DNA of 64,000 bases, taken from the NCBI GenBank assembly GCA_902779765.1, contig CACZCQ010000007.1, positions 114,138 to 178,137 on the forward strand. Direction: 5' to 3'. The stretch is from an uncultured Bacteroidia bacterium. GTDB lineage: Bacteria; Bacteroidota; Bacteroidia; Bacteroidales; UBA932. Shown in pieces: positions 48,184 through 50,684 of this stretch; the first letter of the stretch is position 1, and every line of letters begins with the position of its first letter. Position numbers and translations under genes: made by a program. The notes under the pieces are model-generated. The model was not told where the DNA came from, did not search any database, and saw only the letters and a list, made by a program, of their open reading frames with translations.

Positions 48184-48942
48184 GTGAGTAATATTTTGGC
48201 ACAAGCAAACTTCCGCACGGCGCTTCTGGACATCCTGATGCCCAGAAGGTGTATCGTTTGCAACGGTGTCCTTTCGTTGAAGGAAGACCATATATGTGCG
48301 TTCTGCCTTGCGGACATGCCAAGGACTTGCTTTGCCGGTCAACGGAACAACCAGATGTCCGGGCGGTTCAACGCCTTGGTCCAACGGGATTTGAATGGGA
48401 AGGGATTGGATCGTCCGGTGCCGTATTCATACGCCACTTCGCTGTTCTATTATCGTCCTGGTACCGGATACCGTGATATCACAAGGAGATTGAAATATCA
48501 TTCTGACCTTTCGGCAGGTCGCTATTTTGCCGGAATGCTCGGCCGCGAAATGGCGAGTTCTCCTCTGTTTTCAGATGTCGATGCCATAGTTTCCGTCCCT
48601 CTTCACTGGACAAGGAGATGGTCCAGGGGATATAACCAGGCTGAGTTAATTGCCAAGGTACTGTCCTCTTCACTTGGCAATGTCAGGGTTGCGGACATCC
48701 TGGTACGTCGCCGTAGGACCAGGACTCAGACACGGTTGGATCCGGAAAGTAAGATTGCGAACGTGTCCGGAGCTTTTCGATTGAAAAAGGGTGTGCGGTT
48801 GTCCGGATACAGGCATATATTGCTTGTAGACGATGTGTTTACTACAGGCGGAACCCTTCATGCATGCTACGTTGCCTTGAAAGATTCCTGTCCGGACAAT
48901 ACTAGGATTTCGGTCGCCACACTGGCTTTCGTAGGCTCTTGA
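48184..48942 (+). CDS. ComF-family double zinc ribbon/phosphoribosyltransferase protein
   Basis: CIVC...CAFC, VPLHW, RGYNQAE, LLVDDVFTTGGT. Confidence 0.9.
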   Translation: MSNILAQANFRTALLDILMPRRCIVCNGVLSLKEDHICAFCLADMPRTCFAGQRNNQMSGRFNALVQRDLNGKGLDRPVPYSYATSLFYYRPGTGYRDITRRLKYHSDLSAGRYFAGMLGREMASSPLFSDVDAIVSVPLHWTRRWSRGYNQAELIAKVLSSSLGNVRVADILVRRRRTRTQTRLDPESKIANVSGAFRLKKGVRLSGYRHILLVDDVFTTGGTLHACYVALKDSCPDNTRISVATLAFVGS

Positions 48943-49118
48943 TAAATTGTAAGCAATAAGGTTTTAAAATTTATTTTAAACGTTTTTATAGGCCTTGTAC
49001 GGCCCTGTAATGGGTGTTATTAAAACGGATTATAAAAATACCTTATTGTTTATATCTCTGTTCTTCAAGAGGTTGCAGGTAATATTCTGCACTTTAACAA
49101 AAAAAAGTTATAAAATAT

Positions 49119-49149
49119 TTTGCACAATTGAAAAAATGATATAACTTTG
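49119..49149 (+). promoter_or_regulatory. Canonical Bacteroidota promoter with no downstream annotated gene
   Basis: TTTG (49119) - 19 nt - TAACTTTG (49142). Confidence 0.75.
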
Positions 49150-49154
49150 TAATC

Positions 49155-49270
49155 GGGTTGAGTAATGAGGTTCTCTCACCAATCAACCTATTGGTTATTA
49201 GTTTTAGTGTTATTAATTATGTGGTTAGAGTGAGGGTCCACGCGGGAAGCGTCGACACTCATTTTTTTTT
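49155..49270 (+). ncRNA. Candidate ~115-nt sRNA or 22-aa hydrophobic small ORF transcript
   Basis: 5' hairpin, U/G-rich linker, GC-rich terminator with T-tract; ORF 49165-49233 MRFSHQSTYWLLVLVLLIMWLE. Confidence 0.6.
49228..49270 (+). terminator. Intrinsic terminator of the candidate small transcript
   Basis: GAGTG..GTC-C-ACGC-GGGAA-GCGT-C-GAC-ACTC followed by ATTTTTTTTT. Confidence 0.75.
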
Positions 49271-50684
49271 ATGCCTTTTTCTGCATCCTGTTGAACAGGG
49301 AAATCAGGACACATCCCAGGATTCCTGAGCAAAGCGATCCCATCAGGACGGCGACCTTGCCCATGTCGCGCAGTTTGGCCGTTATTTCCGGAGCTTGTTC
49401 ACCGAAGGACAGGGTGTCCACGAAGATGGACATCGTGAATCCGATACCTCCTAGACAGGCTACGGCGACAAGCATTTTCCAAGTGGCTCTGGCAGGCATT
49501 TCGCCGGCCTTCAGTTTGACTGCGATAAAACTGGCAAGCGAGATTCCAAGAGGTTTTCCGACCAGCAGGCCCAGGAATATTCCCATGCTTACTCCACCGA
49601 GGGCCGGATCTATGTGGAATACGTTGAAATAGGAGAGGTCCGGTATTTCCACTCCGGCATTCGCCAGAGCGAACAGCGGCATTATCAAGAAATTGACCCA
49701 CGGCTCCAGGGTGTGCTCCAGCCTGTAGCTCACAGGTATCGCTCCCTTGGAGATTGTGCTCATCCTTCTCAGGCAGTGCCTTTGCGGACCATTCGGGAAC
49801 TCTGTCGATGAAGATTCGATGAGGTTGTATTCGTTAAGCCTCTTGATATACTGAAGTCTCTTCCTGCGGAAGTAAGCCTCGTTGTAGCGAGGTACCATGG
49901 GGACCAGGAAAGCCATCACTACACCGGACATGGTCGAGTGTATGCCCGCATAATAGAACAGGGCCCAAATCGCGAGTCCCGGGAAGAAATAATACCAGCT
50001 TCTCTTCTCTCCCAGCTTGTTCATGATCAGGATGACGATGATCAGGAGGAATGCAATGCCCAGGAGAGGGAGGTTGATAGTGCCTCCGTAGAATATTGCG
50101 ACCACGAGGATGGCGATCAGGTCGTCTGCAATGGCCAGGGCGGTAAGGAAGACCTTGAGGGATACCGGGACCTTGTCGCCCAGGATTGAAAGGATACCTA
50201 CCGCAAAGGCTATATCGGTGGCCGTAGGGATTCCCCATCCGGATGCGGCGGCCGTTCCGTGGTTGACGATTGCGAATATGGCTGCAGGAGCTACGACTCC
50301 TCCGAAGGCCGCGATCACGGGCATCAGGGCCTTCTTCACACTTGAAAGTTCCCCATGCTTCATCTCACGCCGGATTTCCAGTCCGACCGTGAAGAAGAAA
50401 ATGGTCATCAGGATGTCATTGATGAATTTTTCGATGGTCATCCCATCCGGGAACATGACGTCCCTGCCACCGGGTACCTTGAAAAACAGTGAGAACTGGG
50501 TCTCGAGTACGCTGTGATAAAAATCTTTGGTAAAAGGCAGGTTGGCCAGGAGCATCGCAATGACCACACAGGCGAGGAGGATCACTCCCTGCGACCAGGG
50601 TTGCCTGGAGAAGCTGCGTCTGCGGCGTTTGAAGTTCCTGATTCCTTTAGTCCAAGTGTATAGGGGAAATAGTCTCATGATCAT
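49269..50684 (-). CDS. nhaA: Na+/H+ antiporter NhaA
   Basis: INDILM, FFFTVGLE, GWGIPTATDIAF, LAIADD, LGGIGFTMS. Confidence 0.95.
   Translation of the reverse strand: MIMRLFPLYTWTKGIRNFKRRRRSFSRQPWSQGVILLACVVIAMLLANLPFTKDFYHSVLETQFSLFFKVPGGRDVMFPDGMTIEKFINDILMTIFFFTVGLEIRREMKHGELSSVKKALMPVIAAFGGVVAPAAIFAIVNHGTAAASGWGIPTATDIAFAVGILSILGDKVPVSLKVFLTALAIADDLIAILVVAIFYGGTINLPLLGIAFLLIIVILIMNKLGEKRSWYYFFPGLAIWALFYYAGIHSTMSGVVMAFLVPMVPRYNEAYFRRKRLQYIKRLNEYNLIESSSTEFPNGPQRHCLRRMSTISKGAIPVSYRLEHTLEPWVNFLIMPLFALANAGVEIPDLSYFNVFHIDPALGGVSMGIFLGLLVGKPLGISLASFIAVKLKAGEMPARATWKMLVAVACLGGIGFTMSIFVDTLSFGEQAPEITAKLRDMGKVAVLMGSLCSGILGCVLISLFNRMQKKA

Follow-up and report, generated by a model that had tools for sequence, protein, structure and literature searches.

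What is transcribed between two genes that end facing each other? In the stretch analysed here (the window: 64,000 nucleotides (nt) of contig CACZCQ010000007.1 from an uncultured Bacteroidia bacterium of the genus Cryptobacteroides), a ComF-like phosphoribosyltransferase open reading frame (ORF; 48184-48942, plus strand) and an nhaA gene (49269-50684, minus strand) converge on a gap of 326 bp. From the letters alone, a sequence-only reading had proposed for 48943-49270 an orphan promoter driving an RNA of ~115 nt that might act in trans, encode a small hydrophobic peptide, or do both. All the features it listed were found in the sequence, and the convergence of comF and nhaA was borne out by the ORF list and by Pfam. 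The reading that we favour, with a probability of roughly 0.6, is that of a free-standing, non-coding, trans-acting small RNA (sRNA) of ~117 nt, whose invariant core pairs with mRNA leaders and thereby represses translation, the mRNA of a gene for an EF-G2-like protein being the best candidate target.

Architecture and conservation of the small RNA gene

A generic sigma-70 scan is uninformative for the gap. In the promoter form of the Bacteroidota, an exact TTTG-N19-TAACTTTG appears at 49119-49149 of the plus strand, consisting of a -33 element TTTG (49119-49122) and a -7 element TAACTTTG (49142-49149) of the Bacteroidota type TAnnTTTG; in the whole window, TTTG-N18-21-TAnnTTTG occurs 4 times against 0.36 expected, a count that none of 100 shuffles reaches. 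The full-consensus orphan promoter is thus present, and it is conserved at fixed spacing across homologs, since in 115 distinct copies of the type bearing a 5' hairpin the -7 box, at a fixed distance from the RNA, reads TACCTTTG (101 copies) or TAACTTTG (7 copies), with TTTG exactly 19 nt 5' of it in 93.

The geometry of this promoter predicts a primary transcript of ~117 nt at 49154-49270 (plus strand, as are all features of the RNA), and 49154-49271 scores 121.8 bits (E = 5e-24) under a covariance model (R1) for which 96 homologs were used. The computed fold contains the 5' hairpin, the unpaired linker of U, G and A and the terminator that had been described from the sequence. In the 5' stem-loop (49155-49189), an outer stem (49155-49161 with 49183-49189) and an inner stem (49166-49169 with 49175-49178) enclose the loop GUUCU (49170-49174); there follow the single-stranded, C-free core GGUUAUUAGUUUUAGUGUUAUUAAUUAUGUGGUUAG (49193-49228), which holds two GUUAUUA repeats and is the proposed seed, a G+C-rich terminator hairpin (49231-49261) and the U-tract of an intrinsic terminator, T9 at 49262-49270, a T-run that also follows the hairpin in the aligned copies. 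The fold z-score of the predicted RNA alone is modest (-2.2).

A BLAST search with 49100-49275 found matches in 30 of the 36 genomes compared from the same genus, and 24 other Bacteroidales groups yielded no convincing match. When the core was searched for with a tolerance of 3 mismatches, the 36-mer GGTTATTAGTTTTAGTGTTATTAATTATGTGGTTAG was recovered from 247 of 301 species-level genomes of Cryptobacteroides, a genus of gut and rumen, and from 125 of the 137 that are of high quality; it matched almost always with 0 mismatches and in 1-6 copies per genome, usually 1-3, the window's own genome carrying one. The reversed pattern, used as a control, gave 0 matches, and at the same tolerance the core was not found in 115 genomes from 36 other genera of the same family. 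Many copies lie at contig ends (e.g., G022:C33:1-168, G016:C5:1-129, G357:C31:44-75, and G383:C104:14-45), as would result from a repeated core breaking the assemblies, and paralogs or prophage junctions may consequently be under-counted.

The core forms 36 invariant columns in all 96 distinct aligned copies, and its flanks average 73% identity. In the outer 5' stem and both terminator helices, pairing holds in 92.9% of the cells, compared with 35-53% in controls with slid partners, and 192 cells are changed on both sides where these controls have 9-23; none of 500 shuffles reaches the observed values. Such two-sided changes affect all 7 pairs of the outer 5' stem and all 4 pairs of the inner terminator helix, and terminator helices 2 and 3 are 97% paired across the 96 copies. 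An outer stem, an internal loop, an inner stem and a loop likewise make up the fold of nearly all of 93 distinct 5' sequences, and the loop reads GTTCT in 88 of 115 copies. A conserved unpaired seed flanked by covarying structure, as is generally expected of a base-pairing sRNA, is therefore what the alignment presents.

The genes beside the copies vary from genome to genome (housekeeping genes of various kinds, with synteny to comF in part only), which implies that the sRNA gene is an independent unit, and a functional link to its neighbours was rejected on the same grounds. Promoter and terminator are conserved independently of those neighbours, as is commonly the case for trans-acting sRNAs. 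Conservation, covariation and promoter conservation together strongly support the earlier proposal of an orphan promoter that yields a terminator-ended, trans-acting RNA of ~115 nt, and we have little doubt that the locus is a real gene for a conserved small RNA.

Outside the genus, the covariance model built from the alignment found one weak match (34.7 bits). The sister genus g40 has a shorter and diverged core, UGGUUUUUAGUUUUAGGUUAUUAGUUUG, with a terminator, in three copies in two genomes, each behind a sigma-54-type promoter. It follows from this diverged version that the family is older than the genus and that its seed differs between lineages.

Candidate targets of the invariant core

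Perfect complements of the core were counted at -40 to +10 of start codons and compared with dinucleotide shuffles. In the window's own genome (~1900 genes), 27 leaders hold a complement of at least 10 nt against 7.3 +/- 3.6, and 15 hold one of at least 11 nt against 2.2 +/- 1.7, neither count being reached by any of 300 shuffles; the complements all lie at -25 to -9, and coding-region controls are without enrichment. In 1.2 Mb (911 genes) of a second, complete genome of the genus (G444), the count at 10 nt or more was 10 against 4.3 +/- 2.3, reached by 11 of 300 shuffles, which is a modest replication. The genes matched in the own genome include those for a GH92 enzyme, a fucosidase, two GFO/IDH/MocA oxidoreductases, NagB, an FGGY kinase, GcvT, a 2-oxoacid:ferredoxin oxidoreductase, a class-IV aminotransferase and an EF-G-like protein.

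Among 384 reciprocal-best pairs between the two genomes, the EF-G-like gene (C9:5549-7657 in the own genome) is the only one with a match of at least 10 nt in both, 0.05 such pairs being expected. Its product has the full EF-G domain set and reads GSSKSGKT/DAPGS where the canonical EF-G of the same genome reads AHIDAGKT/DTPGH; an EF-G paralog without the catalytic histidine is EF-G2-like (fusA2-like). The closest solved structure is a 718-residue chain (7uvp/8dmf, 788 bits) deposited as 'TetQ', which is probably the EF-G2 of Bacteroides thetaiotaomicron.

The match extends to the orthologs of this gene. Of the 21 whose start could be placed, 19 have a perfect complement of at least 9 nt and 18 one of at least 10 nt, located at -25 to -7. 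The longest match in these leaders averages 11.1 nt, where shuffled cores give 6.6 +/- 0.7 and none of 200 does as well; duplex energies average -17.4 kcal/mol, compared with -12.6 +/- 1.3 kcal/mol. The leaders comprise about ten distinct sequences, which pair through about five registers of the core (CACATAATT, CATAATTAATAAC, ATAACACTAAAAC, AAACTAATAAC, and AATAACCAAT(A)), and most of them share UAAUAAC, the complement of the two GUUAUUA repeats, a motif present in only 27 of the 1900 leaders of the own genome, where the gene ranks 18th of 1900 by duplex energy. The conserved complementarity to target mRNAs that one looks for in a base-pairing sRNA is thus found in the EF-G2-like leader, and on this sequence evidence the EF-G2-like mRNA appears to be the best candidate target. 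In B. thetaiotaomicron, carbon limitation induces no gene as strongly as that for EF-G2 (fusA2), which the bacterium needs to colonise the gut (PMC6989115); the fusA2 mRNA co-purified with another sRNA (PMC10994844).

The leader of a GH92 alpha-mannosidase gene (C7:4236-7079 in the own genome, with its ortholog in G444) also matches the core in both genomes, at about -19 to -13, through AACACTAAAAC and ATAACACTgAAAC, and is a possible second conserved target. Two other kinds of partner were considered and set aside. A long antisense partner in the own genome turned out to be only the opposite strand of the gene itself, the remaining top scores being no better than those of shuffled cores, and the ribosomal RNA operon (16S-ITS-23S), taken from a complete genome of the genus as the window's own assembly has, of the rRNA genes, only a 16S 3' end, scores 25, below the shuffle mean of 28.8.

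One core in several contexts

A survey of architectures, covering 151 copies from bacterial genomes and those on viral contigs, distinguishes four genomic types and a fifth, viral one. The most numerous (122 copies, that of the window included) has the sigma-A-type promoter and the 5' hairpin. Nine copies have the same -7 box and no hairpin, so that the core begins a few nt after the start site and the RNA would be ~70 nt long; seven of these (L030, L034, L060, L078, L079, L114, and L119) share the motif GTAACAATTnnTTAACA ~35 nt before the -7 box, a candidate transcription-factor binding site. In three copies confirmed by ARAGORN (L081:2775-2930, L099, and L115), the core stands directly behind a tRNA-Cys(GCA) gene, and this paralog would be released from the 3' trailer of the tRNA-Cys precursor. 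At least six copies carry TGGCAC-N5-TTGC, the sigma-54 consensus, directly upstream (L025, L040, L080, L120, L130, L138, and L084, besides the g40 loci L199 and L256-L258), and the own genome encodes RpoN. The fifth type, on viral contigs, has no promoter and stands at the 3' end of a ligase-like gene of phages. Since the copies with sigma-54-like promoters, behind tRNA-Cys, in phage 3' ends or lacking the hairpin all keep core and terminator, these two together constitute the functional unit. At one locus (L021, G028:C17:26780-26884), two convergent copies share a single palindromic terminator hairpin.

Comparison with known RNA families

The Rfam check proposed earlier as a test of novelty was run, and no characterised family matches, either over the whole window at gathering thresholds or locally at E <= 10. 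The closest parallels are the FopS and GibS RNAs of Bacteroides, which are ~65-70 nt long, are transcribed from a sigma-ABfr promoter and have a long single-stranded seed at the 5' end; they have many paralogs, and copies of them occur on phages. FopS RNAs were shown to block the initiation of susC mRNA, and the RRM protein RbpB binds them over a 41-nt motif (PMC11697453). The models of FopS (RF04319) and GibS (RF04182) gave no match at E <= 10 for the window or for the hairpin-less, sigma-54-type, tRNA-linked and sister-genus copies, with a control FopS locus (L206) scoring 77.5 bits against the FopS cut-off of 56. The FopS R1/R1' seed CATRGTATTAGATTTAAGGTTAAC has 0 matches, with up to 3 mismatches allowed, in the own genome and in one further genome of the genus, whereas the 24 other Bacteroidales genera from which FopS-like loci were fetched for comparison do match; the best manual alignment to that seed reaches ~17 of 24 positions in low-complexity sequence, and an nhmmer profile of FopS does no better than on decoys. 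Homology to FopS was accordingly rejected.

The resemblance in design is nonetheless considerable. Both families have a Bacteroidales host, a canonical TAnnTTTG promoter, a long, near-invariant, C-poor single-stranded seed followed by an intrinsic terminator with a CGUGAG-type loop, paralogs that include 3'-end-derived ones, and phage copies; the hairpin-less Cryptobacteroides copies share even the ~70-nt layout, and pairing next to start codons to block initiation, demonstrated for FopS, is what we propose here. The differences concern the seed sequence itself; the extra 5' hairpin of most copies, including the ~117-nt RNA of the window, where it places 35 nt ahead of the seed, a 5'-terminal seed being confined to the 9 hairpin-less copies; the copy number, usually 1-3 per genome against 12-15; the lack of an encoded RRM protein of the RbpB type; the use by some paralogs of sigma-54-like promoters or a tRNA-Cys precursor; and the best target candidate, which is the EF-G2 gene and not susC. 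The best reading is therefore that of a new family of the FopS-like, translation-blocking antisense kind. Regarding the FopS-like genes of other Bacteroidales, about 10 of 25 (among them L205, L208, L211, L212, L215, L224, L227, and L228) have ATGTTnTAnAACAT just upstream of the -7 box. The published consensus of Cur/BT4338 is wwwTATGTTnTAnAACATAwww (PMC6989115). ATGTTnTAnAACAT fits it, hinting that FopS-like genes may be controlled by carbon limitation.

A more distant parallel is offered by the Qrr sRNAs of Vibrio, several sigma-54-dependent and Hfq-dependent paralogs with a perfectly conserved unpaired stretch of ~32 nt followed by a terminator. The Cryptobacteroides paralogs likewise have a perfectly conserved unpaired region before the terminator, and some of them, together with all three g40 copies, have sigma-54-type promoters; sequence and phylum, however, are unrelated, the copy of the window has a sigma-A-type promoter, and the Qrr RNAs depend on Hfq.

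Proposed mode of action

In the model that we propose, the gene's own housekeeping-type Bacteroidota promoter would transcribe an sRNA that ends at the intrinsic terminator, the 5' hairpin probably serving as a stabilising or processing module. The GUUAUUA repeats of the core would pair with A/C-rich sequences of the UAAUAAC type ~9-25 nt upstream of start codons and, by analogy with FopS, occlude the region that Bacteroidota ribosomes need for initiation, so that translation would be repressed. The register of the core that is used may differ from species to species, and this would account for the freezing of all 36 nt; paralogs are wired to other inputs, namely sigma-54-like promoters, a tRNA-Cys precursor and the 3' end of a phage mRNA. 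That translation is blocked in this way with fusA2 as a main target is, in our view, a proposition with slightly better than even chances.

Several observations weigh against this model. Among 845 leaders from ~170 other genomes, complements of at least 10 nt number 6 against 3.0 +/- 2.0, a count reached by 27 of 300 shuffles and not significant. The best match of the own genome, 15 nt in the leader of the class-IV aminotransferase gene ilvE, is not conserved: it is genome-specific, 24 orthologs averaging a longest match of ~7, and ilvE was dropped as a target, its orthologs serving as a negative control for those of the EF-G2-like gene. Two SusC-like leaders are matched in G444, and the SusC trend is weak, the median duplex energy of 12 SusC-like leaders being -16.05 against -12.8 kcal/mol for other genes (p = 0.03), with 1 of 6 shuffled cores doing equally well. 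As for fusA2, common descent links many of its leaders, and these do not count as independent observations; the longest matches of the leader in four outgroup genomes are 9, 5, 10, and 6 nt, the 10-nt one coming from a sister genus without the RNA; and the diverged core of g40 does not match g40's own fusA2 leader, so that co-evolution of this variant with its leader was rejected. The complement of the core is, moreover, AU-rich and internally repetitive, and some matches may reflect a common leader motif and not selection for pairing. Finally, no RNA chaperone partner is known, and no RRM_1 (PF00076) protein was found in the own genome, which is 97.8% complete, under a search in which the B. 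thetaiotaomicron control matches.

These points bring up the strongest rival, according to which the RNA is real and mainly binds or titrates a protein (a single-strand RNA-binding protein, S1 or an RNase) or acts as a decoy, with the core as a protein-recognition surface. The absolute invariance of 36 nt exceeds what most seeds need, the internal repeats of the core (GUUAUUA twice, UUAG three times) resemble multi-site protein sponges, FopS RNAs themselves are bound by RbpB over their 41-nt motif, and the enrichment of targets is weak outside the own genome. Yet the nearly complete genome lacks an RRM_1 protein, and a pure sponge would not predict leader complementarity that is position-specific at -25 to -9 and, in the EF-G2-like case, conserved in shifting registers. 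We consider such a protein-binding role improbable, and we retain the pairing of the core with mRNA leaders as the better account.

Phage-borne copies

The exact core occurs on eight contigs of IMG/VR. On four of them (L244, L247, L249, and L250; e.g., L247:7100-8054), a hairpin with the GUUCU loop overlaps the stop codon of a 642-residue NAD-ligase-like ORF and is followed by core, terminator and a Phage_integrase gene, there being no promoter; a Mu-type portal gene lies 4 kb upstream of this arrangement. The arms of the phage hairpins differ in a compensatory way (CGTTC/GAACG, CTGTC/GACGG, and CAAATC/GATTTG). Two further contigs (L245 and L248; L248:6080-7672) carry a complete, promoter-bearing copy with a minimal 5' hairpin, and ~5 nt separate its -7 box from the end of a 488-residue phage-type integrase ORF that precedes it. 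Such a layout may be that of a phage attachment site (attP) that regenerates an RNA gene upon integration, or that of a phage-borne copy of the regulator.

One might go further and regard the core as primarily a DNA element, i.e., an attachment (att) site of temperate phages or integrative elements, whose copies would be att scars or element-borne. An identical segment beside an integrase gene on phage DNA is indeed what we found, both in the promoterless and in the promoter-bearing arrangement, and the many genomic copies at contig ends are a sign of repeats. The hosts' genomes tell otherwise. An integrase-like ORF lies in the flanks of only 1 of 172 genomic copies, 3.4 kb away, and no lysogen with direct core repeats flanking a prophage was found, although contig breaks at the core may hide cases. 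The two copies that stand 52 kb apart in G357 are ordinary paralogs of different types with normal genes and no phage genes between them, and a prophage in that interval was rejected. Furthermore, hosts do not conserve att sites for the benefit of phages; the conserved promoter, covarying hairpin and terminator favour an expressed RNA; and the phage copies themselves preserve the GUUCU hairpin through compensatory changes. We therefore think it very unlikely that the core is an att site in the first place.

The use of the sRNA gene as a bacterial attachment site (attB) by phages is, by analogy with tRNA genes, likely a secondary feature. Genes for tRNA and tmRNA serve as phage attachment sites, and sRNAs derived from tRNA trailers, such as 3'ETS-leuZ, are known. 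Here, too, a conserved RNA gene has its 3' part carried by phages beside an integrase, and some copies stand directly behind tRNA-Cys in the manner of trailer-derived sRNAs; the differences are that no attL/attR lysogen was found and that the phage copy keeps nearly the whole RNA, including the hairpin. An extended version of our reading would have the whole core act as a 'sliding' multi-register seed that controls EF-G2 together with genes of glycan and amino-acid metabolism, with phages integrating at the sRNA gene and carrying a promoterless hairpin-core-terminator copy, fused to the end of the ligase gene, that would rewrite or supplement the host regulator on infection. We offer this extension tentatively, as a speculation that is doubtful in its entirety.

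The short open reading frame and other features of the gap

The sequence-only reading had also pointed to an ORF of 22 codons, MRFSHQSTYWLLVLVLLIMWLE, at 49165-49233, with its ATG inside the 5' hairpin, and had thought of a small membrane peptide, a dual-function RNA or an mRNA like those of type I toxins. The ORF exists, its ATG is where it was said to be, and the core does translate to YWLLVLVLLIMWL in one frame, so that in this genome alone the locus resembles type I toxin mRNAs in having a short hydrophobic ORF with its start codon in a 5' hairpin. What did not stand is a conserved function. An ORF that starts with ATG in this frame occurs in only 8 of 138 copies, and the N-termini of these eight are unrelated; at the ATG position most other copies read GCAAGG or GCAAGT, the ATG being specific to this genome, and in the common variants a TGA closes the frame just upstream. 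The codon-level against structure-level comparison that had been suggested came out on the side of the RNA, the 36-nt core having no synonymous variation while the adjacent stems vary freely, which argues for constraint on the RNA and not on a coding sequence. Copies without the hairpin begin only a few nt before the core, and in contrast to type I systems an overlapping antisense partner is not evident. A coding role of any of these kinds is thus unsupported and, in our estimate, highly improbable; we judge the ORF non-functional and regard the 22-residue peptide as an accident of this one genome. The caveat voiced earlier, that its hydrophobicity merely follows from U-richness, is in our judgement the right interpretation.

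The notion that hairpin and T-run are merely a bidirectional terminator shared by the converging comF-like and nhaA genes, with a fortuitous promoter match, can practically be discarded, for although the T-run overlaps the nhaA stop codon, the minus strand has no U-run after the hairpin and the unit of promoter, hairpin, core and terminator recurs in many unrelated gene contexts, so that the comparative data already contradict it.

That overlap is the meeting of the RNA 3' end with the nhaA stop (49269-49271, minus strand) that had been noticed from the sequence; read-through from nhaA, if there is any, would give, in this genome, an RNA complementary to the whole of the sRNA. Of the sequences upstream, the two palindromes that had been pointed out (TTTAAAAT-TT-ATTTTAAA from 48963 and TGCAG-N8-CTGCA at 49074) are present, but neither is conserved in the syntenic relatives compared. 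The comF-linked loci (L003-L006 and L009) share a conserved block, TATTAAAACGGATTATAAAAATACCTTATTGTTTATA, which lies at 49019-49056 in the window, ~100-135 nt ahead of the start site; a regulator may bind there, or the block may signal the end of comF.

Significance

Cryptobacteroides (family UBA932, the former 'RC9 gut group') is among the most abundant uncultured lineages of the rumen and hindgut, and to our knowledge nothing is known of its post-transcriptional regulation; a full-text literature search with the genus name and 'small RNA' returned only unrelated work. The genus now gains a near-universal and easily recognised regulatory RNA with a testable target. It stands out by 36 nt that do not vary among ~250 species, by its several kinds of promoter, by copies on phages beside integrases and by the conserved EF-G2 candidate. 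The differing use of registers among species is offered as an explanation for the length of the frozen stretch, and one and the same seed appears to be plugged into sigma-A, sigma-54, tRNA-processing and phage outputs. More broadly, a pattern seems to be emerging in which individual Bacteroidota lineages have FopS-like RNAs of their own, the single-stranded seed being frozen in each, and to this pattern the locus adds a clear case.

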